In this document: one piece after another, positions 4,971 to 43,120 of the stretch
Layout of the letters: every line of letters starts with the position of its first letter
Numbering within the stretch: position 1 is the stretch's first letter
From: an uncultured Gammaproteobacteria bacterium
Lineage (GTDB): Bacteria; Patescibacteriota; Patescibacteriia; JAHIZJ01
Direction of reading: 5' to 3'
DNA length: 64,000 nt
NCBI GenBank assembly: GCA_964371245.1
Contig: CAYJKP010000001.1
Coordinates: 315,042 to 379,041, forward strand
The notes under the pieces: generated by a model
The model's database searches: none
Seen by the model: the letters and a program-made list of their open reading frames with translations, nothing else
What the model was told of the DNA's origin: nothing
Translations under genes and position numbers: made by a program

Positions 4971-5041
4971 GAGCCGTCGCTCAGTCCTGGGGATAGCGCG
5001 TTGAAACGAAGAAAGTCGGCCGGGAGCACGTACGAGGCACT

Positions 5042-5461
5042 ATGAATTTAAACAAAGTCAGCCTCATCGGGAATTTGACTCGTGAACCGATGAGCCGAAC
5101 CCTGCCGTCAGGCCAGTCTGTCACGAATTTCGGCCTGGCTACCAACCACCTCTGGTGGGACGCGAAATCAAAAGAAAAAAAGGAAAGCGCTGAATTTCAC
5201 AATATTGTCGCCTGGGGCAAGCTCGGCGAGATCTGTGGGAAGTATCTGAAGAAGGGGAGCAAGGTCTATATCGAGGGCCGTCTCCAGACACGCGCCTGGA
5301 CCGATCGAGCCGGCGCCAAACGTTCCCGGACCGAGGTCATCGCTGAAAATCTGATCATGCTCGGCCACCTCGGCTCAAAAAAAGAAGAACAGGCTGAAGC
5401 CAAGAAACAAGAGCTCCTGGCAAAAGAAGAGGTTGATGTCCGGCAAGTCCCGGTTGAATAG
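5042..5461 (+). CDS. ssb: single-stranded DNA-binding protein
   Basis: OB-fold SSB signature MNLNKVSLIGNLTREP...HNIVAWGKLGE...VYIEGRLQTRAW. Confidence 0.9.
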   Translation: MNLNKVSLIGNLTREPMSRTLPSGQSVTNFGLATNHLWWDAKSKEKKESAEFHNIVAWGKLGEICGKYLKKGSKVYIEGRLQTRAWTDRAGAKRSRTEVIAENLIMLGHLGSKKEEQAEAKKQELLAKEEVDVRQVPVE

Positions 5462-5508
5462 GCAACAACGATAAACAACGCGTTCATTTCATCCAAACCG
5501 TTTGCTGC

Positions 5509-5588
5509 TTGCTCGCCTCGTCCTCAGACCCTAGTGGAAGCCAACCCGTCCTCTGGTTTTCACTGGCGGGAGAAGATCAGGCGAGCAA
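5509..5588 (+). other. candidate structured RNA element closed by a 10-bp inverted repeat (TTGCTCGCCT ... AGGCGAGCAA), in the ssb 3' region
   Basis: perfect 10-bp inverted repeat about 60 nt apart, followed at 5622-5647 by an intrinsic terminator. Confidence 0.3.
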
Positions 5589-5621
5589 CCAGGAGTCGGC
5601 TTGGCTATAGGTAATTATCAT

Positions 5622-5647
5622 CGACGGGTTAAAAGCCCGTTTTTTAA
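5622..5647 (+). terminator. rho-independent terminator (ACGGG-ttaaaag-CCCGT, T6)
   Basis: GC stem followed by TTTTTT. Confidence 0.55.
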
Positions 5648-5795
5648 TCACTTCTTTTCTGTCCGTCTTCCACTTAATTAATAAGACAAGTCTCCCTGCC
5701 GTCTTTTCCCCGAAATTTACCCCGGACCAGACGCTCGCGCGTCGGTACGGGGTCGATTACGAGGTTCTGGGAGGCGGGCAGGAAAAAGGTGAGCA

Positions 5796-5823
5796 TAAAT
5801 GAAAAGCTTACCCTAGGGTAAGC
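5796..5823 (-). terminator. terminator for minus-strand small gene (palindrome GCTTACCC-tag-GGTAAGC, T-rich on minus strand)
   Basis: perfect palindromic hairpin; minus strand reads hairpin then TTTTCATTT. Confidence 0.45.
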
Positions 5824-5856
5824 TCGAGACAGGACAGAGCGATTGAAAGGAGGGGA

Positions 5857-6114
5857 TCAGGCTGGCGGCGTGACGGCGGTGAATAGGTAGGAGGGGTACC
5901 AGCGTCCGTTCAAGCCAGCCAGTCTGACGATCTGGAAAGTCAGCGGCATGCAGCAGCAATCGTGTGACGAAGGGCAGCCTGGCCAGTGTTCGTCGTCCGT
6001 GTCGGTATCGACCTCGGTCACCCGGAATCGCGCATCAGGCGGAGCGCTTAAGAGATCTTGCACCTCGGCCTGGCTTTCATCAGCCAATCTGACTAGTTGT
6101 CCGACTTCCAGCAT
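5857..6114 (-). CDS. hypothetical small acidic protein (85 aa), high-GC
   Basis: GGAGG RBS 9 nt upstream of ATG at 6114 (complement); terminator hairpin downstream; inner start of ORF-track 5857..6159. Confidence 0.5.
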   Translation of the reverse strand: MLEVGQLVRLADESQAEVQDLLSAPPDARFRVTEVDTDTDDEHWPGCPSSHDCCCMPLTFQIVRLAGLNGRWYPSYLFTAVTPPA

Positions 6115-6261
6115 GTTTCCAAACCTCCGTGGGGTAAAGGCTAGGGAAAGGGCGAACAATTAGAAACCGTATGATACTATCATACACTTTATTAAACACT
6201 AGATAAAGCCCAATTATCCACAATATTTTTTGGCTTTTTTTAGCCAAACTTGGTAAATAAG

Positions 6262-6294
6262 AAAAAATCCGCCCAGGCTGTCGGGCCAAGGCGG
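6262..6294 (-). terminator. terminator of lipoprotein gene (CCGCC...GGCGG stem, T-run on minus strand)
   Basis: GC hairpin followed on the minus strand by ATTTTTTC. Confidence 0.5.
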
Positions 6295-6311
6295 TTGGTC
6301 GTTGTTCAGAC

Positions 6312-7676
6312 TCACGGAGCAATGATATGTGTGGCTCCGTCCCAGAAAGCCAGCTTCAGGTGGCCGTCTCCCCAGTACTGGAGGCAGTTATTGCCAGGCA
6401 GCCAGAGCGGCGATCCGGCGTAGGTATCCGGCAGGCGGCGGCGGTCCCACAGTCCGACGGTACCGAGGTAGAGCCCACGCTGGTCGCCAGACTCAGCAAA
6501 CGCGTATCTGGTCCGGTCGGGCGAGTAAGCGACAGAAGTCAGATTCGCCGTCGCTACCACTTTTCCGCCGGTTCCGGAGAGCGGATCCACCCAGTAAATG
6601 CCGTAGAAGTCGGCCCAGAGGACCGCGTCAGGCGCTACCCAGCAGAGCTGCAGCGACGCATTCTGCAGGGTGCTAATGCGCATGTAAACGGTGTGAACAC
6701 CGCTCCCGTCGACGCGCATGACGCGGATGATGGCCTGGGTTCCGTACGAATGGTTCACGAATGCGATCAGCGAATCGCCCGGCGAAAACGTCGGGTTGTG
6801 GTCGTAGACGAAGCCCTGCGTCTGGTAGATCCTCCGCACGACGTTCGAGGGCGCGTCATAGAGGTAGATTCCGTCGACATAGGCGCCAAAGGCAAGCCGG
6901 TCGCCGGAATTCGACCAGACATAGTCGTCGCTGGCGTGCGGATTCGGAATCTCCGTCCTGATGCTGCCGTCCCGGTTCGCGATCACGATGCTGTTGTTCG
7001 CTGACGTGTAGGCGACGTACTGGCCGTTGGGCGACACCCGGTACAAGCCCAGGTTGCTCAAGCCGGAAGCCAGCACGCTCCACTCGATTCCGTCGGCTCT
7101 GATGAGGAACAGCTTGTCGCCGCGGACCTGGGTGAGCATGATGTCCGGGCAGGGCTCGAACGTGGCCGAGACCGTGGTCGTGTCCTCGCCGGACAAGGCA
7201 ACAGTCTCAAAATGCGGATAGTAGCCGGGCCGGCGCAGATACACCTCGCACTTGTCGTCGAAGCCGAGGGGAACGTCGGGAATGATCGCCGGCGTCATGA
7301 CGGACAGGAGCGAGTCGTTCAGCGTGATGTACGCCTCGGGCGGGTTTGACAGCAAACGCAGGACGGCCGGCCGGTGTTCAGAGAAGCTGTGGTACACGGC
7401 GGGATTAACCGAGGCGCTGACCACGACCGTCTCGGCGTGCGCGTAGTAGCCGTGGATCGTGAAGGTGACGACATGGTCGCCATAGTCGACGCCGGTGAGC
7501 GCCGCGTCCGTCACCAGGCCGGTGTCAGTGCCGTCGAGCCAGATGGCCGCGCCTGGCGGAAAGGAGCGGCAGTCGATGGTACCGTGCTTCTCGGGTTCGG
7601 TTCCGTTCTGGCTGCAGCCGGCAAACGTGAGAACGAGCGCGGCGCAGATGGTAAGGATAGACAAGGTCGGTCGCAT
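6312..7676 (-). CDS. lipoprotein with PEGA-like domain and TolB-like (PD40/WD40-like) beta-propeller repeats; high-GC (about 65%)
   Basis: signal peptide with lipobox LTFAGC; PEGA-like segment; repeated ...YVAYTS...DGS...WSNSGDRLAF... propeller-like blocks; AAAGGAG RBS. Confidence 0.7.
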   Translation of the reverse strand: MRPTLSILTICAALVLTFAGCSQNGTEPEKHGTIDCRSFPPGAAIWLDGTDTGLVTDAALTGVDYGDHVVTFTIHGYYAHAETVVVSASVNPAVYHSFSEHRPAVLRLLSNPPEAYITLNDSLLSVMTPAIIPDVPLGFDDKCEVYLRRPGYYPHFETVALSGEDTTTVSATFEPCPDIMLTQVRGDKLFLIRADGIEWSVLASGLSNLGLYRVSPNGQYVAYTSANNSIVIANRDGSIRTEIPNPHASDDYVWSNSGDRLAFGAYVDGIYLYDAPSNVVRRIYQTQGFVYDHNPTFSPGDSLIAFVNHSYGTQAIIRVMRVDGSGVHTVYMRISTLQNASLQLCWVAPDAVLWADFYGIYWVDPLSGTGGKVVATANLTSVAYSPDRTRYAFAESGDQRGLYLGTVGLWDRRRLPDTYAGSPLWLPGNNCLQYWGDGHLKLAFWDGATHIIAP

Positions 7677-7910
7677 GATCGGACTCCTTTCATCACCCGC
7701 GACGCGGGGCTGAAGGTGGTAGGACTAGGTTTTCGAAACAGCGAAAGAGCACGTAAATGTACACCGGTAATAAAGGGGAGTCAAGCGCTTTAATGGATTT
7801 GTTTATATTGATGAATACTGAGTTTTGGGTGGACAAAATAGGGCTAATGAGAGTATAAATATAATATCGAGTTCGTATATACTCTAGTTAGCTGACATAT
7901 TTTTCACAAC

Positions 7911-8342
7911 ATGACTGATAAGATTCCTAGAGATAAATTTCCAATAATAACAGCGCTTACAGATGAATTATCATCTTTAAATAGTGGGTTAGAGCTAAAC
8001 ACAAAAGCTAATAGCATATGTCTTGGCCGTATACAAATGGATAAGTCAACAAACCAAAGCACGACAGCTTTAAGCTGCATCCAGACGTTGAGTATCATTA
8101 AAAATACATTTTACATCTACTTGGTTGAGCAACACGGCCAAAATAGTACCTTGGAAAAGTATTCATTTAAACTAACCGACGAGCATAAAGTACCCTTGAA
8201 GCAATATGATAAAGATCCAAAGTCTGGTTCACATGTTCATCTTTTTACAAACGGCAAGAAAGTAAATAAACATATACCATTTCCTGACTCGTTGAAAGAA
8301 ATCGCGAAAGACATTATCCATTTAATCGCACAAAGTAACTAG
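7911..8342 (+). CDS. hypothetical protein (low-GC island)
   Basis: ORF in an about 33% GC segment; no recognisable motif. Confidence 0.4.
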   Translation: MTDKIPRDKFPIITALTDELSSLNSGLELNTKANSICLGRIQMDKSTNQSTTALSCIQTLSIIKNTFYIYLVEQHGQNSTLEKYSFKLTDEHKVPLKQYDKDPKSGSHVHLFTNGKKVNKHIPFPDSLKEIAKDIIHLIAQSN

Positions 8343-8377
8343 TTGTGAAAAATACATCGCCTAACACGGGCTAGCCG

Positions 8378-8809
8378 GTGAGCGAGCCAATTACCACTGA
8401 AATGGGAAAGATAACAGTATATTATTCTCCAATAATTGACGAGGAAGAGAAGAAAATACTCTCTGATGCTTTTCGGCAAGATGTCGATTTTTGTAAATTT
8501 GAGAAAAAGGGTGTTCATGCTGGCGCATATGATGTTGAAATACTCATTAATATTTTCGGTGGCATTGTTGCGTCGGTTTTGTATGATTTAATTAAGAACC
8601 TCTTTAAAAGAAATAGAAAAAACATCATGGATGGTTATAAGAGACCACGTTACACTGTATTGGTTCTTAGAAAGGAAACTGAGTGGATTGTTATCTCGAA
8701 TGTCAACCCCGAAAATAAAATGACGATTTCCATTACATCAGCAAATTCAGTAGATCCCTCAAAAATCGACATCCAATACTCTGATGAAGAGCTATCAAAG
8801 CACCTTTAG
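8378..8809 (+). CDS. hypothetical protein (low-GC island)
   Basis: ORF, no recognisable motif. Confidence 0.4.
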   Translation: MSEPITTEMGKITVYYSPIIDEEEKKILSDAFRQDVDFCKFEKKGVHAGAYDVEILINIFGGIVASVLYDLIKNLFKRNRKNIMDGYKRPRYTVLVLRKETEWIVISNVNPENKMTISITSANSVDPSKIDIQYSDEELSKHL

Positions 8810-8941
8810 ACAAACTATTGACTCGCTCACCCAAATTGCTCGACCACTTTCGCGGTTCGCTCCGCGAGATTATACCGCTACGTTCACTCGCAACTTCGGC
8901 TAGCCCGAAACGTTGTCCGAAATTTTGTAAATTTTCTATCT

Positions 8942-9298
8942 ATGGAAAAAGGCCGTGAAAATATTATAGACATGCGAGAATGGAAAGCTCGTAAAGCGCG
9001 AGAACTTTTTGGCGATGTGGCGGCAGAGATACGGCGAGGAACATTACAAATACACTTGGTAGATGTATCCTCGCTATTTGCTAAGACTGATGAAATCCTT
9101 CATTATGCGCTTGAAGGGCAAGAGCTAGACCCTGATTCTCCTGACTATCAAACACGTTGTGCTGAAGCAAAAAGGGAAATCTTAGGAAACGCAGATGCTA
9201 TTACTGAAGCTTTACCACAATACCCAGATGTTGACTGCCCGGCTGTACGAGAAAGTCTTAACCTGCTTAAGGATTTCACTGAGCAGATCAGAGAATAG
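8942..9298 (+). CDS. hypothetical protein (low-GC island)
   Basis: ORF, no recognisable motif. Confidence 0.4.
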   Translation: MEKGRENIIDMREWKARKARELFGDVAAEIRRGTLQIHLVDVSSLFAKTDEILHYALEGQELDPDSPDYQTRCAEAKREILGNADAITEALPQYPDVDCPAVRESLNLLKDFTEQIRE

Positions 9299-9319
9299 AA
9301 AATTTACAAAACTCCATAC

Positions 9320-9392
9320 AACAGCGTCTATACGACATCAGCCTTCGCTAAAGCTTCAGCTGACAGTCGTATGAAACGCAAACGTTAAGTGA
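9320..9392 (+). repeat. intergenic element E1: AACAGCGTCTA - variable hairpin - ACGCAAACGTTAAG
   Basis: shares both conserved flanks with E2 at 10098-10158; internal hairpin TACGAC...GTCGTA. Confidence 0.5.
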
Positions 9393-9460
9393 CATTTTTG
9401 TGGGCTGGTGTAGATAGCCACTTGCCCGAGGGATCCGCTCCTCTTTTTCACTCAATATAT

Positions 9461-10099
9461 ATGGACAATAGCCAAAAAGCAGTTCACGTATACAACCAAA
9501 TAGCCGAGGACTATGCCAATGTGTTTTCAGAACCCTCTGAACATATCGACGAGTTTTTGGAACTATTACCGACCAATGGAAAGATTTTAGACGTTGGCTG
9601 CGGCAATGGCGTTGATTGTATGTACGTGAAGAACAAGGGTTTCAAAATCGTTGGTGTTGATATGTCAGAAAAGATGCTTGATATCGCAAGAAGCAAATAC
9701 CCTGAAATCGAATTTCGTCTAGGAGATATGCGAAGTCTTCAATTCGATCAAAATGAATTTGATGGCATTATTGCCTCTTGCTCACTTATTCACATTCCTA
9801 AAAAGGACATTCCAAAAACTCTAGGGCAGTTTACACGGTTTCTCAAACACGGTGGTGCAATCTACATCCAATTACAATCTGGAACATCCGAGGAGGTTTT
9901 TGTCGATGAGCCCTTTAAACCAGACGAAAAGCTGTTTGTTAATGTCATTTCACCTGACGAAATCGAACTGCTTTTACACAACGCTGGTTTTAAGATTGTA
10001 CATAAGCATGAAATACAATCACTGAAAAAAGAGGAGCTCGACTATACTCACTTAATCGTCATTGCTCGATATGCCAGCGCCCATAAAAACATCACTTAA
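9461..10099 (+). CDS. class I SAM-dependent methyltransferase
   Basis: motif I ILDVGCGNG and post-I acidic D in VGVDMSEKM; start taken at inner ATG 9461. Confidence 0.8.
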   Translation: MDNSQKAVHVYNQIAEDYANVFSEPSEHIDEFLELLPTNGKILDVGCGNGVDCMYVKNKGFKIVGVDMSEKMLDIARSKYPEIEFRLGDMRSLQFDQNEFDGIIASCSLIHIPKKDIPKTLGQFTRFLKHGGAIYIQLQSGTSEEVFVDEPFKPDEKLFVNVISPDEIELLLHNAGFKIVHKHEIQSLKKEELDYTHLIVIARYASAHKNIT

Positions 10100-10158
10100 C
10101 AGCGTCTATCTGCCATGCGCTACCGCGACACAGCAGATGATACGCAAACGTTAATGAA
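10098..10158 (+). repeat. intergenic element E2: AACAGCGTCTA - variable hairpin - ACGCAAACGTTAAT
   Basis: same flanks as E1; internal hairpin ATCTGC...GCAGAT has a different stem sequence. Confidence 0.5.
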
Positions 10159-10169
10159 ATGATAATCTT

Positions 10170-10946
10170 ATGGAAAAAGGAATAGACTACATCGGCGTCG
10201 GTTGTTGGGGAATAGTAACCAACGATCAAAATCAGATATTGCTGATCAAAAAGAAAATCAATGACTATTGGGAGCGACCCGGTGGAAATGTTGAGGTCGG
10301 CGAACGGCTCGAGGATTGCATTGTCCGGGAGGTAAAAGAAGAAACTGGCATTGAAGCCAGGGTGGCCGGCTTTGTCATGTTTGAACAGGTATTTTTCGGT
10401 CCGGACAAAAAGCATTGGCTGGCGTTTTGCTACCACCTCGAATATATTTCAGGCGAGATAAAAAATATGGAGCCTGAAAAACATGATGACATAAAGTGGT
10501 TTTCATTTTCAAGTTTGCCAAAAAACCTCAGTCCGCATACAGCTAAGGCCATAAATAAATACTTGAATAAATACACTGGCGTCATAATTGAAGAAAGCCT
10601 TGAGAATACTGACGTTTTGAAAGACGTTACGATACTCAAGACGAAAATCGAGCCAGTCACTGACAGACACAAAACGCCGTGGGTGGCTCAATGGAGTCTG
10701 CTCACTTTTGAAATTCCAAATGACCAGGCGGATATCGTTGCCGAGAAGCTGAGTAAATCACTCGACTCTCAACACAGCTGGTATGCTGACTTTAAAAATC
10801 AGGCGATCCATTATATTATTTTTCGAAATAGAATCTTCAAGATTGATCGAACGAGCAAAGAGCAATATAATGAAGCGAAGCAGTATGGATTATCGCTTGG
10901 CATACCAGATTATCAAGTTGACTTTCATCCAGAAGTTACGAAGTAG
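10170..10946 (+). CDS. NUDIX hydrolase fused to an uncharacterised about 130-aa C-terminal domain
   Basis: Nudix box GGNVEVGERLEDCIVREVKEETGIE; C-terminal half has no recognisable motif. Confidence 0.75.
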   Translation: MEKGIDYIGVGCWGIVTNDQNQILLIKKKINDYWERPGGNVEVGERLEDCIVREVKEETGIEARVAGFVMFEQVFFGPDKKHWLAFCYHLEYISGEIKNMEPEKHDDIKWFSFSSLPKNLSPHTAKAINKYLNKYTGVIIEESLENTDVLKDVTILKTKIEPVTDRHKTPWVAQWSLLTFEIPNDQADIVAEKLSKSLDSQHSWYADFKNQAIHYIIFRNRIFKIDRTSKEQYNEAKQYGLSLGIPDYQVDFHPEVTK

Positions 10947-10961
10947 GAAAGATAATATTAT

Positions 10962-11534
10962 ATGCCAGACCAAAACGCACTAATTAAAAAGACCCGCGAG
11001 TTTGTAAAGAAAGCGTTTCAGGATAATCCGCACTACAGTTTCAACCACTGGTCAGTGATGTACAACCACAGCGTCAATGTTCAGAAGCTGGCTCTGAAAA
11101 TTGCCGACGAAATCCATTGTGACAAAGCGGTCGTGGCAATCAGCGCCCTGTTGCACGATATCGGCAAAACCTATCAAGCCGATGAGATGACGCTGCACCA
11201 CAAACACGAGAATTTTAACCTGACGATGGCTGAGGGTTTTCTCAACCAGCTGGGTCTGCCTGATAATACATTGCGCGCGATCCGTGAAAACATATCGTAC
11301 CAGTCTAATTCGACAGAGATGAAAGTGGTAGATGATGCCGACGCGCTCGCGTTCTACCAGGACAAAACACTCCATATGCTATGGATCGCCTGGGCGAGCG
11401 AACGCCAGATGGAGGCTGACATTGAAAAGAAGCTCAATAAATACGAACGCCTCAATTTCGATATCAGCCGGCGTTTAGGAAAACCGTGGCTCGAGCAGAC
11501 CAAAAAAGACTGGGAGGCGTATCGGAATACTTAA
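10962..11534 (+). CDS. HD-domain phosphohydrolase
   Basis: H...HD motif (NHSVNVQKLA ... LLHDIGK). Confidence 0.75.
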   Translation: MPDQNALIKKTREFVKKAFQDNPHYSFNHWSVMYNHSVNVQKLALKIADEIHCDKAVVAISALLHDIGKTYQADEMTLHHKHENFNLTMAEGFLNQLGLPDNTLRAIRENISYQSNSTEMKVVDDADALAFYQDKTLHMLWIAWASERQMEADIEKKLNKYERLNFDISRRLGKPWLEQTKKDWEAYRNT

Positions 11535-11557
11535 TTACTTGGTTTGGTACTAATAAA

Positions 11558-12127
11558 ATGCCAAAAACATTGCTGATCATAATTTCGGGCAAGCCCGGCA
11601 CGGGCAAGACAACCCTGGGCAAGAAAATCGCCAAAGAATTCCATTTGCCGTATGTCGGCAAAGACGTCATCAAGGAATCCCTGTTTGACGACCTGGGCTG
11701 GAGCAACCGCGAGTGGTCGAGAAAGGTAGGCGTGGCGACGTACAGCATTTTGCACTACTTCATTGAGTCGCTATTATCAGCCGGCGTGTCATTCATCGCC
11801 GAAAGCAACTTCAAACCAGAATTTGAAAACGAGAAGTTCCTAGCGCTGAAGAAAAAATACGGTTTCGAGCCGTTTCAGATCATGTGCGAAACTAAGGGAG
11901 AGGTATTGTTTGAACGGTTTAAGGCGCGTACGGCGTCAGGCGAGCGCCATCCCGGTCACGTGGACCATTTAAATCTGGATGAGTTCAGGGCCATGCTGCT
12001 GACGGGCGACCACGAAAGCCTGGATATCGGCGGCCAGGTTTACCGTCTTGATACCACCGATTTTAAGTCGATTGATTACAAAAAATTATACCGTATGATT
12101 AGATCGGTAACGTCAACGCTTGCTTGA
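11558..12127 (+). CDS. P-loop NTPase/kinase (AAA_33 or zeta-toxin-like small kinase)
   Basis: Walker A GKPGTGKTT; DxxG-like region; start at inner ATG 11558. Confidence 0.6.
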   Translation: MPKTLLIIISGKPGTGKTTLGKKIAKEFHLPYVGKDVIKESLFDDLGWSNREWSRKVGVATYSILHYFIESLLSAGVSFIAESNFKPEFENEKFLALKKKYGFEPFQIMCETKGEVLFERFKARTASGERHPGHVDHLNLDEFRAMLLTGDHESLDIGGQVYRLDTTDFKSIDYKKLYRMIRSVTSTLA

Positions 12128-12189
12128 TTTGGGAAACGGTTCTAGTATAAGAAAGCGATAAATTATTAACTATTTTAGGAGATAATCAT

Positions 12190-12408
12190 ATGATGAATTA
12201 TGGCTTCGCACCGGTTGGCTTGATTTTCATGCTTCTGTTTTGGGTCCTGGTGATTTTTGGCATTGCCGCTCTGGCCAAATGGCTGGCCGGCCAAAATAAA
12301 GGCGACCGCAACAGCGACAAATCAGCCCTGGATATCCTCAAAGAGCGCTACGCAAAAGGCGAGATTAAGAAAAAGGAATTTGAAGAAAAGAAAAAGGATT
12401 TGCGTTAA
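12190..12408 (+). CDS. SHOCT-domain membrane protein
   Basis: N-terminal TM helix; C-terminal [25 protein letters not shown] motif; AGGAG RBS. Confidence 0.7.
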
Positions 12409-12432
12409 AAAATTGTAACCCAGCTGCTTATG

Positions 12433-12459
12433 AAAAACCCGCCTTGATAGCGGGTTTTT
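12433..12459. terminator. bidirectional intrinsic terminator (AACCCGC-cttgata-GCGGGTT flanked by A-run and T-run)
   Basis: 7-bp GC stem, A5 upstream and T5 downstream, between convergent genes. Confidence 0.65.
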
Positions 12460-12475
12460 ATATAGCTCGCAAATA

Positions 12476-13939
12476 TTATTTCTTCAGCGGGTCATGTTTC
12501 GAGAGAACCTCAGTCTTGTCGTTGAACCCGTCTTCGTCCGTATCAGCCTTCATCGGGCTGGTACCGAGCTCGCGCTCGCGCTGGTTGGTGAGGCCGTCGC
12601 CGTCGCTGTCCTGGTCAAATTCCGCGAGGGTTGACTCGACGTCATCAGGCACCGGCCAGGTTTTCGGAAAGATATAGACAGTGAACTGGATATCATCGCG
12701 GATCCCGATTTTCAAGCCGTCATCGCAGGTGTATTGGGCGGCGTAGATGTCGGCCAGGCCCGCTTGTTTGAAGTAGTTTACCTGGCAGAAGTCTTTCGTA
12801 TTTGACGTGTTTTCATATTTGCCGTAGGTATAGTGGTCGGTATAAAAGGTGAACAGGATTTTATCGCTCGGTTTAAACGCACCGATGTATGATGGCGTGA
12901 ATTTACCCGTGACAATTACCTCAGGGTTCGTGCAGTCGCCGTGGAAACGGCCCAGGTCTTTTGAAGCGTCGCCGACCTGCGCGACCACCCGCATGCCCGC
13001 GGCCGAGCAGTACCAATTCGGGTCGACGAAGAGAGCGCCCTCTGGAACGTGCGCGTACCAATCATTTTCATCCACCAGGATCGGCGGTACGGGCTCGATG
13101 ACGATCGGGGCGTTAACGTTCTGATTGGCGTTGGAATTTTGATTCGCGTTCCCGTTGAGATTTACATTGAGGTTCGGCGGCACATTCGTATTGCCGTTCA
13201 GGTTTGCGTTAGGCTGGTTGGTATTCAGGTTGGCATTGCCGTTTTCATTTTCATTCCCCGAGTTTGTGTTGAGATTGATATTCAGGTTCGTATTCTCGTT
13301 CGCGTTGGCATTGGCGTTTTCATTACCGGCGTTCGTGTTTAGGTTACTATTGAGATTACCGTTGTCAATAATCACATTGAGATTCTGATTGGTATTTTCG
13401 TTTCCATTGACGTTGATAATAACGGGTTCGCTCGCATTCGTGTTTATATTCTCATTGTCGGTGTTGCCGGTATCGTTCAGATTCGACCAGACCGGCTCGT
13501 CGCCGTTAACGTTCAAATTCGTATTGTCATTTGCGTTCGCGTTCCTGTTATCATCCGGGATAATCACGCCGCCGATTCCGGAGAAGTCGGGCACCGGCAA
13601 ATCCTTGAGCTCGTCAGCGGCATACTCGTGCTTTTGCAGGGCCTGGAGTTCGCTGGCTGACACCTGTTTGACTGGTAACCAGTCTTCGGCCAGGTATTTA
13701 AAAAAGCCGACCACTGATTTCTGTTCAGCTACTTCCTCGATAATGTCAGTTCCATTATTTTGCGATTGATTTTTTGGGTTATTCGTTGGCTGAATGGTCG
13801 TGTTTTGATTTACATCCGTGCCGCGAAAATAAACAACCGCCTGCCAGGATATGACGGCGATCAAGATAACAGCTGCGCCAATAACGAGGCCAGTAAGGAC
13901 GGCGATACCGAGCTCGTTGAATTTTTGCCTTCTACTCAT
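12476..13939 (-). CDS. membrane-anchored protein with a long Asn-rich low-complexity region and C-terminal thrombospondin type-3-like Ca-binding repeats
   Basis: N-terminal TM helix; about 150 aa of NxN/NANLNTN repeats; C-terminal DQDSDGDGLTNQRE...DTDEDGFND (DxDxDG). Confidence 0.65.
   Translation of the reverse strand: MSRRQKFNELGIAVLTGLVIGAAVILIAVISWQAVVYFRGTDVNQNTTIQPTNNPKNQSQNNGTDIIEEVAEQKSVVGFFKYLAEDWLPVKQVSASELQALQKHEYAADELKDLPVPDFSGIGGVIIPDDNRNANANDNTNLNVNGDEPVWSNLNDTGNTDNENINTNASEPVIINVNGNENTNQNLNVIIDNGNLNSNLNTNAGNENANANANENTNLNINLNTNSGNENENGNANLNTNQPNANLNGNTNVPPNLNVNLNGNANQNSNANQNVNAPIVIEPVPPILVDENDWYAHVPEGALFVDPNWYCSAAGMRVVAQVGDASKDLGRFHGDCTNPEVIVTGKFTPSYIGAFKPSDKILFTFYTDHYTYGKYENTSNTKDFCQVNYFKQAGLADIYAAQYTCDDGLKIGIRDDIQFTVYIFPKTWPVPDDVESTLAEFDQDSDGDGLTNQRERELGTSPMKADTDEDGFNDKTEVLSKHDPLKK
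13100..13560 (-). repeat. degenerate short tandem repeats encoding the Asn-rich tract (GTT/ATT-rich on + strand)
   Basis: seen in sequence; coding low-complexity. Confidence 0.6.
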
Positions 13940-14007
13940 ACGGGTGATGTTTAATAAATACTCTTTAACTCAATATACCACGGGCGCATTGTAACTGACC
14001 AGGATTA

Positions 14008-14086
14008 AATTCAAAATTCAAAAGGTAAAATTATTGTACCCGCTAACGGCGGGATTCTATCATTTTTAATTGTTAATTTTGAATTT
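14008..14086 (+). repeat. AATTCAAAATT-arm hairpin element, copy A (arms AAATTCAAAATTCAAAAGG / AATTTTGAATTT; core CCCGC-taacg-GCGGG)
   Basis: one of four copies sharing arm sequences and architecture, with a different compensating core stem. Confidence 0.6.
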
Positions 14087-14207
14087 CCTGTATTCACATT
14101 AATTAAAAATAAAACGGACAGCCCTTGTGCGGACGGATGTCCGTACGAGGCTGCCCGGCCGGCGTGGCTACCCTAGGCGGGTGTCAGCCGGCGGCCGTGG
14201 TGGAAGA

Positions 14208-14996
14208 TCAGGCCCGCGTCATGCCGTTGAAGTTCGGCTTGATGACGTGGTACCGTCCCTGCCAGGCCGCGTTGGTCGTGAGAGCGATCTGCGCCATGGT
14301 TCCGACGTACTGGCCGTTCGCGATGTTGGCCACGTCGGTGTTCTGCCCCGCCGTAACCGCGAAGTCGTCGCAGGTGTTGGCGGTGGTGCTCATCGGGATC
14401 GAGTTCTCGTCGTTCTTGTAGGTACGGGTCGTCGTCGTGTTCGCGTTCTGTTCGCGGGCATCGGCGGCGGTCTTCGTGTCGGTGATCAGGGCGGCGTCGG
14501 TCTGCGCGTTGGATCTGTTTTGCGCCTCCTGCCGTGTCGAAGTAGCGACCAGCGGGTTACCCGAGAAGCCGACCTCGAAGGAAGAAGGAACGGAAGCCAG
14601 GGTGCCGGCAAGGAAGGTCGCGTTGGCTCTGCCCTCGCTTCCTACCGTGACCGCGATGGTCTGCTTCGCGATCCAGCTCGATTCCTCAGCGGTGTTGTTG
14701 TTGATCGTCAGCTCGTTCTCGGCATAGGTCTTGCTCGTGGTAGCCGTGAACTGGTCCACCCTACCCGCGGCCTCGCAGGTAATACCGGTGGAAGTGCTGA
14801 TGATGGTCTCGCTGCTGACGGCGTCGGCGGTCGATGTGCCGGCGGTCAGCGCGTCCGGGGCGATGGTCACGACCTGCGCGTCATTGTCGAACACCTGCGG
14901 GCTGATGGCCGTATTGGTGTTGGCGCTGCAGAACGTGGCCGGGATCAGGAACACAACCGCGAACAGTGCGAGTATCCAGAACTGCGTTCTCCTCAT
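14208..14996 (-). CDS. secreted Thr/Ala/Asn-rich protein, high-GC
   Basis: GGAGGG RBS 7 nt upstream of ATG 14996 (complement); signal peptide MRRTQFWILALFAVVFLIPATFCSA; terminator on minus strand at about 14110-14150. Confidence 0.6.
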   Translation of the reverse strand: MRRTQFWILALFAVVFLIPATFCSANTNTAISPQVFDNDAQVVTIAPDALTAGTSTADAVSSETIISTSTGITCEAAGRVDQFTATTSKTYAENELTINNNTAEESSWIAKQTIAVTVGSEGRANATFLAGTLASVPSSFEVGFSGNPLVATSTRQEAQNRSNAQTDAALITDTKTAADAREQNANTTTTRTYKNDENSIPMSTTANTCDDFAVTAGQNTDVANIANGQYVGTMAQIALTTNAAWQGRYHVIKPNFNGMTRA

Positions 14997-15282
14997 GGGG
15001 AATCCCTCCAAGAGGTGACGGTCACTACAATCAGCGTGTTTAAGCACCGATGTCGTGTGTTACGCTTGGTCCTTTCGCGGGTCCTCCAATTCCCGAAAGG
15101 GTGTTGCCGTCGCAGAAACGACGGATTAGCGGGCATTGATACAAAACACTCTACTATAAGAATATCGACAAATTAAAGAGAAATCAAGTTTTTGTCAAGA
15201 CTTTTTTGATGCCGCCGGCATTTTACTTTCTTTTTCCGGCGTTTTTGATACAATGAAGGCAATAATACGTCATAATAATACT

Positions 15283-16080
15283 ATGGAAACACCAACCACT
15301 ACCGCCTTCGTCCAACCTGACACGCGCTTTCGGCGGTTGCGCACGTTTAATCTGGCCATGTTCGTTCTCCACCTCGGCCAGGGGATCGCGATGCTTATTT
15401 TGAGCAATGATTTCAGTGTGCCAGTCACGACCGCCTTTGTTGAATACAGCCGATCAGCCGGGAAGCTTGAGCCGGTACTCAACCAAATATTCAGTCTTAA
15501 ACTCGGTCCGTTGGTCGCCGGTTTTTTGTTTCTCTCGGCCTTGGCCCATCTCATGATCTCACTGCCACGGATCTACGACTGGTACGTCGCCAATTTGAAG
15601 CGCGGCCTGAACCTGGCGCGCTGGATCGAGTATGCCTTTAGCTCCTCGATCATGATTGTCGTCATCTCTATGCTGGTCGGAATGTACGATGGCATCAGCC
15701 TTATGTTCGCGTTTTTTCTTAACATGATGATGATTTTATTCGGCTGGGTGATGGAAGTGCACAATCAAACAACCCAGAAGACTAATTGGACGTCATATAT
15801 CTTCGGCTGTATCGCCGGCGCGATCCCGTGGGTGGGTGTTGCGCTCTATCTGTTTTTGTCAGGCAGCGGCAATGCCAAAGCGCCGACATTTGTCTATTGG
15901 ATTTTCTTTTCTATCTTTCTGTTTTTCAATGTCTTCGCAATAAACATGATTCTCCAGTATAAGAAAGTCGGGCCGTGGCGCGATTATCTCTATGGCGAGC
16001 GTGCCTATATCATCCTCAGCCTGGTAGCAAAGTCATTGCTCGCCTGGCAGGTCTGGGCCGGAACATTGCGGCCGGTATAA
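15283..16080 (+). CDS. heliorhodopsin (alternative upstream start at 15253)
   Basis: 7-TM; RWIEYAFSSSIMIVVI, ILFGWVMEVHNQT, FGCIAGAIPWVGVALY and YGERAYIILSLVAKSLLAWQVWAGTL (Schiff-base Lys in VAKS) match the heliorhodopsin family as recalled for HeR 48C12; TGATACAAT extended -10 at 15241-15249. Confidence 0.8.
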   Translation: METPTTTAFVQPDTRFRRLRTFNLAMFVLHLGQGIAMLILSNDFSVPVTTAFVEYSRSAGKLEPVLNQIFSLKLGPLVAGFLFLSALAHLMISLPRIYDWYVANLKRGLNLARWIEYAFSSSIMIVVISMLVGMYDGISLMFAFFLNMMMILFGWVMEVHNQTTQKTNWTSYIFGCIAGAIPWVGVALYLFLSGSGNAKAPTFVYWIFFSIFLFFNVFAINMILQYKKVGPWRDYLYGERAYIILSLVAKSLLAWQVWAGTLRPV

Positions 16081-16091
16081 TAAGCAATTAA

Positions 16092-16160
16092 GAATTCAAA
16101 ATTAAGAATTAAAAATGTCGGTAGGCGACTGCGTCGCTAGAATAATATTTAGTACGATTA
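16092..16160 (+). repeat. AATTCAAAATT-arm hairpin element, copy B (core GCGAC-tgc-GTCGC)
   Basis: GAATTCAAAATTAAGAATTAAAAATGTCGGT precedes the hairpin, as in copies C and D. Confidence 0.6.
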
Positions 16161-16177
16161 TTAGTTAAGCCTTTTTT

Positions 16178-16666
16178 ATGGAAACACCCGCCGAACAAAA
16201 ACCCGTGAATCCGAGTAGCCGGCCAGTAACGCCAATCTGGTTTTTCCTCCTTATCATTATTGGACTAATTATTGTAATAGCCTTTGGTTATCTCGCCTAC
16301 ACAACAATTAATAGTAATGAAAATACAGAAGCAATTCACGTTGTGGCAAAAGTCAATAAATTAGAAGGAATTCCGAATGCCGAGGCTATCATCAAGGCGT
16401 GTCACCTGAAAAGATTTAATGCGCCGCGCTATGATCCTGTTCAAGTAGAATCACGCCCTGACGGGAAAATCAGGGTGATGTATCCTTGCTGTGACCTGCC
16501 TTATTATATCCTTGATTCAAATGCCGAATACCTATGCGATATAGGCGGTATGCCAAAACACATACCATACCCAGACGAATGTCCTGATTCGATTGCCATA
16601 TATGATAATGGAACATATATTGATTGTTCAACCTATAATACCAAAACAACTCCATTTTATCCCTAA
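16178..16666 (+). CDS. membrane-anchored Cys-rich protein, N-terminal METPAEQKPV motif
   Basis: N-terminal tail plus single TM helix; paralogous N-terminus with the next gene. Confidence 0.55.
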   Translation: METPAEQKPVNPSSRPVTPIWFFLLIIIGLIIVIAFGYLAYTTINSNENTEAIHVVAKVNKLEGIPNAEAIIKACHLKRFNAPRYDPVQVESRPDGKIRVMYPCCDLPYYILDSNAEYLCDIGGMPKHIPYPDECPDSIAIYDNGTYIDCSTYNTKTTPFYP

Positions 16667-16752: not shown

Positions 16753-17502
16753 ATGGAAACACCAGTTGAACAAAAACCCGTTGGCTCAGTAGAGCAGCCA
16801 GTTAAGCCAATTGAAAAACCAACGAAGAAACATCACCGTCTCCGCACGACGCTGATCGTCTTGGCTATTATCATTGTTGTGTTCGGAGTTGGCATCGCCG
16901 CCACCGGACTGATTACAATACCGGGTCTCTCCGATATCCTCGGTACCAATACGCCAAAAGACCTGGGCATAAAAGCCAGCCAGGAGGCGTTGACCAGTTT
17001 GGAAAAGAAAATGCCGGTGACGATTGAGGGCAGCGCGGCGGAATTATGCCTGGCCTGCAACCAGACGTATTCGGGCGTGGTTTCAGTTACCGCCAACCGT
17101 ACGTCCGAAGAGATGACTTCCTTTCTCAAGCTCTGGCCGCGCCAGGAAGATGATATTTTAAAGAATACTCAGGTAAAATTTATTGACGGCGGTCTAGAAA
17201 TATCAACTAAGCTGAATAAATATATTCAAGCGCCCGTCTACGTGAAGGTGTTGGTCGAGCGAACGTCAAATAAAACCGTACGCCTTAATATCACCCAGGG
17301 CAAGATCGGCATTTTCAACGTGCCGGAAAAATACCTCCGCCAGGCGAACGACTTTTTCCAGGACCTTGTAAATAACCGCCTAGCCGATGTGACCGGCTTT
17401 TCCATGGACCAGCTTGAATATCACAATGGGTACTCGACATTTTCCGGTACCTATCCAGCAGTGGTAAAGCCGGCGGCAGGAAAGTGGACGGAAGCGTTTT
17501 AA
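16753..17502 (+). CDS. membrane-anchored extracellular protein, N-terminal METPVEQKPV motif
   Basis: N-terminal tail plus TM helix; shares the METPxEQKPV N-terminus. Confidence 0.55.
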   Translation: METPVEQKPVGSVEQPVKPIEKPTKKHHRLRTTLIVLAIIIVVFGVGIAATGLITIPGLSDILGTNTPKDLGIKASQEALTSLEKKMPVTIEGSAAELCLACNQTYSGVVSVTANRTSEEMTSFLKLWPRQEDDILKNTQVKFIDGGLEISTKLNKYIQAPVYVKVLVERTSNKTVRLNITQGKIGIFNVPEKYLRQANDFFQDLVNNRLADVTGFSMDQLEYHNGYSTFSGTYPAVVKPAAGKWTEAF

Positions 17503-40023: not shown

Positions 40024-41190
40024 ATGACATCAGAAAAATACTTTTCATACCGGGGGAAAATTAATCGCGACAATCGAAAATTCAGCACGGTTTATGTTGT
40101 TATCGGATGCGTAGTCGCGTTCATTGCTGGCGCAGTAATTATTGTGGCGAGTAGGCAAACGCAGGTTTCCAGTCCGCTGAGCTTCATAGCCGGCACCCCA
40201 AAGGGAGCGTCAGCAGACAATTCGGGTATTAATGCTTTTTCACCGACCCGTGCTGGAAAAGTCACGTTTATCGCAGTTGGTGATGTCATGCTTTCGCGGA
40301 CAGTCGGTCAGAAAATACGTGAGCACGGGATCGGGTATCCTTTTGAAAAAACCACCGGATTACTAACCTCGGGCGATTTTGCTTTTGGCAACCTTGAAAC
40401 CTCGATTACCGAGGGGCCGGTCGTGAAAAGCGGAACGATGATGTTCCGGGCTGATCCTGGCGTTGAAAACGCTCTCAAGGATAATGAGCTCGTCATTCTC
40501 TCGCTGGCGAACAATCATACGCCAAATTACGGACAGAAAGGCTTGCATGATACGTTTGATTATCTGACGAAGGCCGGAATCCAATATGTTGGGGCTGGGA
40601 AGGATGGTGTTGAAGCGCGGACTCCGAAAATAATTGAGCGTGCCGGCGTGCGCATTGCCTTTCTCGCCTACAACGACAGTGATGTCGTACCGGCGTCGTA
40701 TGAAGCGAGTTCCAGTCGGGCCGGGACTGCCCTGATGAATATCAATACTTTGAAGAAAGATATTGAAACAGCAAAACAAAAGGCTGACGTTGTTTTTGTG
40801 TCAATGCATTCGGGTACGGAATACGTCCCCGGTCCGAATGCCCGGCAGACCGCTTTTGCCCACGCCGCCATCGAGGCTGGCGCCGAATTGGTCATCGGCC
40901 ATCATCCCCATGTTGTCCAAAGCGTCGAGGAATACCAGGGCAAGCTCATCATCTATAGTTTAGGGAATTTCGTATTTGATCAAATGTGGTCGACTGAAAC
41001 GCAGCAGGGCGTTGTGGCCGAGATTACGCTGGCCCGATCAACGGTAACGAATATCGAATTTACGCCGATCATGATTGAAGACTATGCACAGCCGCGTCTC
41101 GCGCACGGCGAGGAGATTAATACGATTCTTGATCGTCTCCAGCTGGATAAAATCAGCCAGCGCACATCGGGCTGGTCGCCCAAAACGTAA
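40024..41190 (+). CDS. CapA/PGA_cap family metallophosphatase-like protein (poly-gamma-glutamate capsule synthesis-like)
   Basis: N-terminal TM; FIAVGDVMLSR...ANNH...HSGTEY...GHHPHVVQ blocks. Confidence 0.75.
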   Translation: MTSEKYFSYRGKINRDNRKFSTVYVVIGCVVAFIAGAVIIVASRQTQVSSPLSFIAGTPKGASADNSGINAFSPTRAGKVTFIAVGDVMLSRTVGQKIREHGIGYPFEKTTGLLTSGDFAFGNLETSITEGPVVKSGTMMFRADPGVENALKDNELVILSLANNHTPNYGQKGLHDTFDYLTKAGIQYVGAGKDGVEARTPKIIERAGVRIAFLAYNDSDVVPASYEASSSRAGTALMNINTLKKDIETAKQKADVVFVSMHSGTEYVPGPNARQTAFAHAAIEAGAELVIGHHPHVVQSVEEYQGKLIIYSLGNFVFDQMWSTETQQGVVAEITLARSTVTNIEFTPIMIEDYAQPRLAHGEEINTILDRLQLDKISQRTSGWSPKT

Positions 41191-41204
41191 AGCGCTATAG
41201 CTTT

Positions 41205-41250
41205 GCCACAAACAGAAAGACCGCCACGAGGCGGCCTTTCTGTTGTAGTA
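41205..41250. terminator. bidirectional terminator (14-bp stem ACAGAAAGACCGCC-acga-GGCGGCCTTTCTGT)
   Basis: long near-perfect inverted repeat between convergent capA-like and HU genes. Confidence 0.65.
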
Positions 41251-42862: not shown

Positions 42863-42963
42863 ACACAGGTATTGAAGAAACTGAGCGAACTGAAAAAGTT
42901 ACGATAAAAAACTGAACCCCCTGGACCAGATGGTCGCAAGGGGCTTGAAACGTTTTCTCGAGC

Positions 42964-43120
42964 TTACGCGCGAGGAAAGGTTTCGAGGAGATTCTGAAGC
43001 ATTGTCCCGACCATCGCCAGACCAGAATGAATAATCGAGAGAGCGGGGACAGCGACTTCAGGAAGGAACAGTTTTAGCAGGACGATGGTCAGAACCAGGA
43101 AGAAGAGGAAGCGAATCATG
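42964..43120 (-). CDS. small hydrophobic protein (51 aa; below ORF-track cutoff), tentative
   Basis: MIRFLFFLVLTIVLLKLFLPEVAVPALSIIHSGLAMVGTMLQNLLETFPRA; hairpin plus T6 downstream on minus strand. Confidence 0.25.

Follow-up and report, generated by a model that had tools for sequence, protein, structure and literature searches.

Between positions 7800 and 12460 of the 64,000-nt stretch analysed here (contig CAYJKP010000001.1; hereafter the window), a low-GC island carries several small open reading frames (ORFs), a set of nucleotide-processing enzymes and two intergenic hairpin elements, E1 and E2. The question raised by this locus is whether its genes constitute one functional system or share a site at which foreign genes accumulate. 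An earlier note on this DNA had leaned towards the first view, likening the enzymes to a nucleotide-housecleaning or modified-nucleotide module such as phages and defence islands carry; read in this way, the region would be a horizontally acquired (defence-like) module whose genes are preceded by E1 and E2 as regulatory RNA hairpins. The analysis reported here leads to a different answer: the region is very probably a gene cassette array of the integron type, carried on the chromosome of a member of the Patescibacteria (Candidate Phyla Radiation, CPR). The account as a whole, with a cassette array at 7843–10156, E1 and E2 as attC sites and a truncated attI, is likewise strongly favoured, and the array probably extends on to 10961.

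The sharp drop in GC content described in the note behind a lipoprotein gene of 65% GC was reproduced: GC fell from 0.63 at 7251–7750 to 0.34 at 7751–8250, stayed at 0.36–0.44 to approximately 10250 and was 0.40–0.49 from there to approximately 12500. Its gene list was also confirmed by Pfam, with an S-adenosylmethionine (SAM) methyltransferase (ATG at 9461 in an ORF opening at 9389, to 10099; Methyltransf_25, 2e-23), a NUDIX hydrolase (10170–10946; 7.5e-23 for amino acids 14–128, with a tail of about 130 aa unmatched), an HD phosphohydrolase (10962–11534), an AAA_33 kinase-like P-loop gene (11558–12127) and a small SHOCT membrane protein, all on the plus strand. In the profile check that the note had proposed, no Pfam family was matched by the ORFs 7911–8342, 8378/8402–8809 and 8942–9298 or by the C-terminal domain of the NUDIX protein. 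The claim that the block is foreign accessory DNA held up. In GC content at third codon positions (GC3), the island is composite, not uniform: GC3 was 0.31–0.40 in the four attC-bounded ORFs (0.40 in the methyltransferase gene), 0.46 in the NUDIX gene and 0.58–0.64 in the HD (0.62), kinase (0.64) and SHOCT genes. The native reference, given by the other 29 genes of the window, was 0.61 ± 0.08 (mean ± standard deviation, SD), which places the cassette ORFs 2.6–3.7 SD under the native-gene value.

Cassette boundaries and attC-type sites

The cassette boundaries were apparent from the window itself. In an inverted-repeat search, each of the first four ORFs was found to be enclosed by its own private pair of inverted arms of 15–28 nt, of which the left arm opened exactly on GTT (GTG for ORF2) and the right arm closed exactly on AAC (CAC for ORF2). 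Cassette 1 (7888–8378) holds the ORF 7911–8342 (143 aa, no family, GC3 0.35) between arms at 7887–7910 and 8342–8365; cassette 2 (8379–8912) holds ORF2 at 8402–8809, or from a GTG at 8378 (135–143 aa, GC3 0.35), with arms at 8377–8391 and 8817–8831; cassette 3 (8913–9384) holds the ORF 8942–9298 (118 aa, no family, GC3 0.31), with arms at 8912–8939 and 9295–9322; and cassette 4 (9385–10150) holds the methyltransferase gene, with arms at 9384–9405 and 10079–10100. All four lie on the plus strand, and the methyltransferase stop codon falls within the R'' of E2. Such an arrangement is that of integron cassettes, which are excised or inserted between G and TT of the attC R' core; because insertion takes place there, the first bases of a cassette are complementary to its own R'' (..AAC). 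When the whole window was searched for 24-nt arms that are anchored on GTT and have a partner no more than 2.5 kb away, cassette-sized pairs were confined to the island; besides these, the scan picked up a single short local hairpin, located at a tRNA gene, and a single match of 14 nt, and three shuffled windows returned nothing. A crude scan of the window for AAC...GTT hairpins was discarded, its output being swamped by GC-rich regions and terminators.

E1 and E2 are more aptly seen as sites that close the preceding cassettes on their 3' side than as elements upstream of the methyltransferase and NUDIX genes. On the plus strand, E1 (9316–9390, 75 nt) reads from R'' ATACAAC through A, GCGTCT-AT-ACGAC, a variable loop, GTCGT-AT-(G)-AAACGC and AAAC to R' GTTAAGT, and E2 (10094–10156, 63 nt), the last attC of the array, runs from R'' ACTTAAC to R' GTTAATG. 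Both have the form of attC sites, that is, an imperfect palindrome from ..AAC to GTT.., 57–141 nt long and 3' of an ORF. Their flank motifs AACAGCGTCTA and ACGCAAACGTTAA occurred twice each in the 64 kb, at 9320/9376 and 10098/10142, and hence only in E1 and E2, and their inner stems differ in a compensatory manner (TACGAC/GTCGTA in E1 vs. ATCTGC/GCAGAT in E2). Whether treated as RNA or as DNA, both gave better folds than shuffled sequence (z −3.1 to −4.2), and neither hairpin is followed by a T-run. A covariance model of the site family (R1, described below) scored them at 85.8 bits (E1) and 64.8 bits (E2). E1 and E2 are thus integron attC-type DNA recombination sites and not regulatory RNAs.

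The other two cassettes of the window end in shorter, minimal and only half-complementary attC-like junctions, also on the plus strand. Junction 1 (8359–8384) reads CCTAAC-ACG-GGCTAGCC-G-GTGAGCG, with 8363–8380 from AAC to GTG; its R' is GTG, not GTT, and it has a counterpart in the next cassette, which ends in CAC instead of AAC. The same form, AAC-ACG-GGCTAGCC-G-GTT, recurs with an ORF immediately after it in one of the loci with a recombinase gene discussed below (L040). Junction 2 (8885–8918) reads CGCAAC-TTC-GGCTAGCC-CGAAAC-GTTGTCC, with 8892–8914 from AAC to GTT; it matched the covariance model weakly (11.8 bits, E 0.54), and the 28-nt arm of cassette 3 begins precisely with its GTT at 8912. 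In cassette 2, an approximately 60-nt stretch that folds poorly, followed by a second minimal site, lies 3' of the arms. ORF2 is a real gene, since it has 16 homologous clusters (131–157 aa). Several parses of this cassette are possible, and ORF2 may represent an insertion at a secondary GTT within the preceding attC; one long attC over 8812–8922 was rejected because this segment folded no better than shuffled sequence.

Copies of E1 and E2, for which the note had suggested a search, were found in other genomes. An exact-pattern scan of species-representative genomes gave nine loci, with hosts in Kerfeldbacteria, Gracilibacteria and other Patescibacteria and in three metagenome-assembled genomes (MAGs) labelled Gammaproteobacteria, and a metagenome scan gave 15 additional loci; viral contigs scanned with the site pattern gave zero matches. 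Model R1, built on 11 copies, detected 47 copies, of which 44 were distinct; they form arrays of two to four sites on one strand, and every copy stands directly 3' of a same-strand ORF. The conserved flanks with compensatory stem changes that had been noticed in two copies are a property of the family: in the 44 distinct copies 95.3% of cells were paired and double-sided changes occurred at 9 of the 16 pairs (78 cells), counts that are somewhat biased by the fitting of the alignment to the model. Among 500 shuffles, none came up to the pairing or the covariation score of the real alignment; in slid controls 17–42% of cells paired. A second, longer site type with the same ends (AAC-A ... NNAC-GTT) and the internal motif GCGGTTCGC..CGGCTCACCCAAATT is present in L002, L005, L031 and L044 and partly at 8817–8918 of the window.

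The pairing of cassette starts with cassette ends is equally general. Complementarity of 20–26 nt was found in 18 cassettes from 10 loci, with a mean arm score of 31.7 for cognate pairs vs. 10.3 ± 2.9 (maximum 23) for non-cognate ones; the cognate partners were derived by search, yet each closes exactly at the AAC preceding the attC core. In most arrays, including that of the window, where the arm lies 3' of the GTT of E2, the arm beyond the last attC has no partner downstream.

From homology break-points, attI junctions and arms, we infer that crossover occurs between G and TT of R'. Two homologous cassettes in loci L003 and L005 (85% nucleotide identity) match over a stretch that opens at ..AC|GTTGTGTG, takes in the ORF and the downstream attC and closes at GTTA, and their upstream attCs are unrelated; because homology ends at these limits, the mobile unit consists of an ORF and its downstream attC, with crossover at the right-hand GTT. 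The reversed polarity (an attC with its downstream ORF, and crossover at the left AAC), which the position of an unpaired G in these sites would predict under IntI1 rules, was considered and rejected. It is contradicted by attI junctions that lead into a cassette arm and ORF without an attC core, by the lack of an upstream core at the first cassette of L004, by arrays that finish in an attC with a partnerless downstream arm, and by the unrelated upstream attCs of L003 and L005.

Imperfect intergenic palindromes of 60–140 nt that fold well on both strands could alternatively be repetitive extragenic palindromes (REP), bacterial interspersed mosaic elements (BIME), miniature inverted-repeat transposable elements (MITE) or plain terminators, unrelated to cassette movement. 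We consider this extremely unlikely. Only two copies are present in the 64 kb, both in the island, the sites always lie on the same strand and in arrays, and no T-run follows the hairpins. Furthermore, the 15–28-nt complementarity of start and end is specific to each cassette, homology breaks at GTT, and, as described below, arrays begin at a conserved attI beside a recombinase gene and a relative holds other cassette content behind the same attI box.

The insertion point and a syntenic relative

On its left, the array is bounded by an imperfect inverted repeat at 7843–7892 (plus strand; arms 7843–7857 and 7878–7892). Its right arm contains a 21-nt attI-like box, AGTTCGTATATACTCTA|GTTA (7870–7890, plus strand), with the putative crossover at G 7887. 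The box, AGTTCGYATA-N5-8-GTTA, occurred once in the 64 kb, at the left edge of the array, where 0.00 occurrences were expected by chance. The same box terminates the conserved attI beside the recombinase gene in L031, L038 and L040 and opens the array of L005. A full attI in the window was rejected, as only the last 21–30 nt are recognisable and covered by the alignment. Two other arrays without an integrase, in L004 (1–900) and L005 (7640–8000), likewise start at a short attI-like box, which there directly adjoins a tRNA gene. A sigma-70 consensus scan upstream of 7911 gave no convincing Pc promoter site, with a pattern that may not fit promoters of Patescibacteria.

Turnover behind this box was observed in a close relative, a Patescibacteria MAG (L045/L046) whose PEGA protein falls in the same 90% cluster as that of the window and whose gene order from PBP to RpoA is identical. 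Nucleotide identity to the window was 90.3% over 5000–7903, 85.2% over 10962–12105 (the HD and kinase genes, with homology starting from the HD ATG), 90.9% over 12433–12498 and 83.5% over 14106–16236. In place of 7904–10961, which in the window holds ORF1–3 and the methyltransferase and NUDIX genes, the relative has 650 nt of 35% GC with a single C39-peptidase cassette. Upstream of this cassette stands the attI box GGAGTTCGGATAATAATGA|GTTAAGTG, and after it a collapsed E-type attC (..ATATGAGACACAAAC|GTTAGG), 32 nt before the HD start codon. Since the segment 7904–10961 is replaced behind a shared attI box, the two close relatives have one insertion point with different cassettes. Two more distant relatives, L035 (65% identity) and L037 (39%), were uninformative on presence or absence because their synteny is broken. 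Within the population of the window, one low-coverage contig (L015) has 10 nt (2662–2671) in place of 32 nt in ORF3 (window 9024–9055), which is probably an assembly artefact or a rare variant.

The HD and kinase genes are native flanking genes outside the array, as judged from synteny and GC3. The block is therefore not one unit: ORF1–3 and the methyltransferase and NUDIX genes are replaced in the relative, but the HD and kinase genes are kept in place there at 85% nucleotide identity. Conservation of the block in syntenic core positions, which the note had named as a finding that would speak against its reading, was seen for these two genes only. The island is in this way explained as cassette turnover at a fixed site, with foreign cargo set apart from native genes.

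The position of the NUDIX gene is less clear-cut. It lies within the segment that varies between the relatives but has no attC at its 3' end, and on balance it would be the innermost cassette or a cassette remnant. A bounded NUDIX cassette was not accepted, as the arm following E2 pairs best with a gapped stretch of 15 nt that lies in conserved coding sequence, a match judged to be due to chance. A stand-alone NUDIX gene of 78% identity is found in a housekeeping context in L042. NUDIX genes (three copies) and MazG were also observed as cargo in recombinase-adjoining arrays, at 3866–6852 of L043 and 5078–6892 of L044, and nucleotide-housecleaning enzymes may be common cargo of such arrays.

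These results bear on the proposal of a horizontally acquired nucleotide-housecleaning or defence-like module with regulatory hairpins, which is very improbable. The four enzyme families are all present and co-oriented, NUDIX and MazG recur as cargo in two other loci, and the domain fused to NUDIX is elsewhere fused to HD, kinase, HIT and NYN enzymes. PADLOC gave generic hits, of the NUDIX gene to PDC-S07 and of the methyltransferase gene to mad2. However, the proposal is largely refuted by synteny, as the HD and kinase genes are native in the relative and the methyltransferase and NUDIX genes are absent from it, and the methyltransferase gene, assigned to the module in the note, is a separate cassette with boundaries of its own. 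E-type sites trail unrelated ORFs in at least 25 loci and are tied to a recombinase and attI; E1 and E2 lack a T-tract, and their conserved flanks are AAC/GTT recombination cores. Rfam searches at the gathering threshold matched three tRNAs in the window and left E1 and E2 unmatched, PADLOC found no full defence system and PHROGs matched no family, in agreement with the note, in which no known defence system had been recognised. The 'nucleotide module' of four enzymes is a juxtaposition and not a system.

The recombinase and comparison with known integrons

In the terms of IntegronFinder, the window element is a group of attC sites without an integron integrase (CALIN), with at least two same-strand attC sites by the R1 scores and no integrase. 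The adjacent intI gene that defines a complete integron is not present, and the array is CALIN-like because no integrase lies in the 64-kb window. In tblastn searches of the window, IntI1 (used as a probe only) gave nothing at E ≤ 10, and the recombinase of L031 gave nothing at E ≤ 0.01.

Complete platforms occur elsewhere, and in them the link between array, recombinase and attI is observed directly. In L031, a 272-aa recombinase is encoded on the minus strand (6366–7184); about 120 nt further on, the first cassette starts at G|TTAAACG, and ORF-attC units follow on the plus strand, the third attC being E-type. Six further homologues (53–72% identity; L038, L039, L040, L041, L043 and L044) were examined, so that the association is known from seven loci including L031. 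In these six, small and mostly unannotated ORFs diverge from the recombinase gene and housekeeping genes lie on its other side. Clear attC arrays were found in L031, L039, L040, L043 and L044; L041 carries larger, defence-type genes, with no cassette arm or attC found, and the contig of L038 ends after one ORF. L031 and L038–L041 have approximately 122 nt in common upstream of the recombinase gene, ending in ..AGTTCGYATAAWAGNA|GTTA (also ..TTCGYATAAWAGNA|GTTA). This region behaves as an attI, because the five loci are conserved up to GTTA and diverge beyond it. The attI box recurs in L044, and L043 has a divergent form of it; the first cassette arm starts at the attI GTT in L031, L039, L040 and L044. 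A 392-aa recombinase in L004 was rejected as the integrase, being XerC-like (238 bits vs. 129 for IntI) and situated downstream of the array in convergent orientation; a housekeeping role is probable.

The L031 recombinase had its best Protein Data Bank (PDB) match in VchIntIA (2a3v, 7.8e-42), in two stretches (residues 2–171 to 5–174 and 196–272 to 241–317). Since 66 VchIntIA residues (175–240) face 24 residues in the L031 enzyme, approximately 42 aa of the IntI-specific domain are absent. Archaeal XerA (4a8e, 3e-41) equalled VchIntIA as a match, in one stretch. Among NCBIfam models, the enzyme passed only NF040815, 'XerA / integron integrase' (239 bits, cut-off 220). The family to which it belongs, with more than 6,000 matches at E < 1e-30, comprises proteins of 270–290 aa, the named ones mostly from Patescibacteria. 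A recombinase of this kind is rather likely to be the enzyme responsible for the arrays.

In many respects the arrays resemble sedentary chromosomal integrons and CALINs (Cury et al., 2016, PMC4889954; Neron et al., 2022, PMC9024848). These share co-oriented, mostly single-ORF cassettes, mostly of unknown function, an imperfect palindrome from ..AAC to GTT.. after each cassette with a putative G|TT crossover and bottom-strand AAC-G, array-specific attC similarity, low-GC cargo and content that varies among close relatives; the lack of a nearby integrase is the feature that defines CALINs. They differ in that the host here belongs to the Patescibacteria, that the R'-L' arm, and not the R''-L'' arm, carries an unpaired G and the longer spacer, that start and end are complementary over 15–28 nt vs. 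a 7-nt R box, that some junctions measure only about 21–25 nt and that the array starts at a 21-nt attI box alone. With canonical IntI enzymes (IntI1, VchIntIA/IntI4; 2a3v), the recombinase of the related arrays shares a higher score to the IntI model TIGR02249 (223 bits) than to the XerC (187 bits) and XerD (185 bits) models, and a divergent orientation with an attI of approximately 122 nt, ending in G|TTA, between gene and array. Unlike them, it is only 270–290 aa long and lacks the residues described above. The IntI-specific additional domain, located around patch III, has been treated as defining and necessary (Messier and Roy, 2001; Ghaly et al., 2022, PMC9668308), and for archaeal IntIs its retention has been reported, together with attC folding of the canonical kind (Ghaly et al., 2022, PMC9668308). 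Archaeal integrons (PMC9668308) are similar in the occurrence of platforms and many CALINs in MAGs of uncultivated small-genome lineages and in a semi-conserved attI beside intI, and dissimilar in that the recombinases here are without the IntI-specific domain.

Several points weigh against reading the region as a cassette array. The Pfam search of 40 ORFs of the window gave no tyrosine recombinase, and no integrase was called within 10 kb of the array in L045/L046. The linked recombinase failed the defining IntI test, as its 223 bits lie under the TIGR02249 cut-off of 265, and it could be a housekeeping Xer enzyme that merely adjoins the arrays. Across 10 contigs from a single study the island is 99.9–100% identical, and neither a variant at the cassette level nor a sign of ongoing rearrangement was seen there. 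Both minimal junctions (approximately 21–30 nt) are atypical and individually not significant, and 8812–8922 folds like shuffled sequence. The conserved unpaired G (9373 in E1, 10139 in E2; column 62 in 11 of the 11 rows of alignment A2) and the longer spacer (4 nt, AAAC, on the R' side vs. 1 nt, A, on the R'' side) are on the R'-L' arm, opposite to canonical attC, and under the rules for IntI1 and VchIntIA this placement predicts recombination of the other strand at R''.

The rules in question were worked out for canonical sites, in which the strand-selecting extrahelical bases, with a conserved G in L'', lie on the R''-L'' arm and select the bottom strand, the R''-L'' arm being the longer one in VCR (34 vs. 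31), and in which recombination moves to the top strand, at R'', once these bases are inverted (Bouvier et al., 2009, PMC2727003). Judged from the sequence, the putative boundaries here point to no such switch. The base preceding GTT is always C, which gives AAC-G on the bottom strand, a feature of most attC sites (Bouvier et al., 2009, PMC2727003). A functional meaning of the mirrored asymmetry is possible but somewhat doubtful.

The points concerning the recombinase and the short junctions could also be accommodated by Xer-dependent modules, similar to integrative mobile elements exploiting Xer (IMEX) or to Acinetobacter pdif modules, that are exchanged on double-stranded core sites and not as folded single strands. 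The associated recombinase lacks the IntI-specific insertion, is as near to XerA as to VchIntIA and passes only NF040815; minimal junctions such as AAC-ACG-GGCTAGCC-G-GTT are near-palindromes of about 21–25 bp that resemble duplex core sites, and the unpaired bases lie on the non-canonical arm. With the Xer/dif systems (XerA, XerS-difSL, IMEX, pdif), the arrays also share a site beside the gene and the accumulation of foreign modules there. Modules of the pdif type are flanked by 28-bp XerC-spacer-XerD duplex sites in alternating orientation. In contrast, most sites here are structured palindromes of 60–140 nt, in a single orientation per array, and their stems covary while the sequence drifts, which indicates selection on folding. 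The layout is that of an integron, with a divergent recombinase, a conserved attI, cassettes made of ORF plus long folded site, and a G|TT junction rather than a 28-bp duplex dif. Exchange of Xer-dependent modules is therefore unlikely, and an integron-type array is the preferred reading.

If the array works as an integron does, a cassette would be a promoterless unit of one ORF and a 3' attC, which a tyrosine recombinase would excise as a circle and insert at attI, with the crossover at the site's right-hand end, between G and TT. For the methyltransferase cassette, the predicted circle junction is ...ACGCAAACG joined to TTAAGTGACATTTTTG. The recombinase would be a 270–290-aa IntI/XerA-like enzyme without the IntI-specific insertion, and it would act in trans, since no such gene was called in the window or, in the relative, within 10 kb. 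Owing to the 15–28-nt pairing of start and end, the excised circle should fold into a stronger hairpin: on the bottom strand, DNA folding was predicted at −14.5 (E1) and −19.7 kcal/mol (E2) in the array and at −30.3 (E1) and −31.2 kcal/mol (E2) in the excised circle, so that the circle would be approximately 12–16 kcal/mol more stable than the in-array site. Free circles might thus fold readily and be captured, and integrated sites would be weaker substrates, which would favour capture over re-excision.

No description of integrons in Patescibacteria was found in the literature searched, which is not proof of novelty, and a variant in this group with an integrase lacking the IntI-specific domain is apparently undescribed. 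That Patescibacteria carry a widespread, distinct integron lineage, with an I2-less integrase, mirrored unpaired bases in attC and 15–28-nt terminal complementarity, is a tentative proposal for which the balance lies slightly on the negative side. The IntI-specific domain, or I2 helix, is held to enable integrase to recombine folded single-stranded attC sites, and it is also used as the criterion for finding integrons in genomes. Such a lineage may represent another structural solution to the recombination of cassettes, or an intermediate that has survived from the passage between Xer and canonical IntI, and it may include orphan arrays with a 21-nt attI box that still turn over through an integrase acting in trans. 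If so, standard searches would score its platforms as orphan CALINs and undercount integron frequency in the CPR, the step from Xer-type to IntI-type recombination would be testable with natural enzymes and sites, and the mirrored unpaired bases would offer a natural test of the strand-selection rules of VCR and attCaadA7.

Other features of the window

Downstream of the kinase gene, the small SHOCT gene (12190–12408, plus strand) is accessory and not bounded by attC. It lies in a region (12106–12432) that constitutes an insertion relative to L045/L046 (327 vs. 30 nt), between the kinase stop and the shared terminator, with no recognisable attC. That terminator, which the note had placed at the end of the island, is a bidirectional terminator-like hairpin at 12433–12459 (AAAAACCCGC-CTTGATA-GCGGGTTTTT) separating convergent genes; its segment is 90.9% identical in the relative. 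A second indel hotspot adjoins the array beyond it: 12499–14105 is absent from L045/L046, where 96 nt replace 1.6 kb. The minus-strand gene at 12476–13939 encodes a protein of 487 aa that contains long N-x-N repeats rich in asparagine, together with a TSP3 repeat of the bacterial type.

The C-terminal domain of the NUDIX protein (10551–10943, approximately 125 aa) is very conserved (55–72% identity) and also occurs as a stand-alone protein of 141–155 aa. In Patescibacteria, and in one Woesearchaeota, it is fused behind HD, NYN/LabA, HIT and AAA_17/18 kinase domains, and its further fusion partners include alpha/beta hydrolases, DUF523, RibD_C, GrpB and VanY. Its AlphaFold model had a pLDDT of 91.3, the best fold match in the PDB had an E-value of 0.17, and a weak resemblance to ACT/PII ferredoxin-like folds was seen.

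Strong intergenic hairpins with AAACGT-type flanks are present at 41180–41248 and 42906–42986; they did not match the attC model and may be the 'first covarying element' to which the earlier note alluded. The hypothetical genes at 16178–16666 and 16753–17502 are probably paralogues, as their starts are near-identical (ATGGAAACACC.G..GAACAAAA); the former has a GC3 of 0.35, as low as that of cassettes, but no flanking attC-like sites were found. Between these features and the island, this small-genome Patescibacteria contig carries a heliorhodopsin gene (15253–16080; Pfam PF18761, 3.8e-97), which is conserved in L045/L046.

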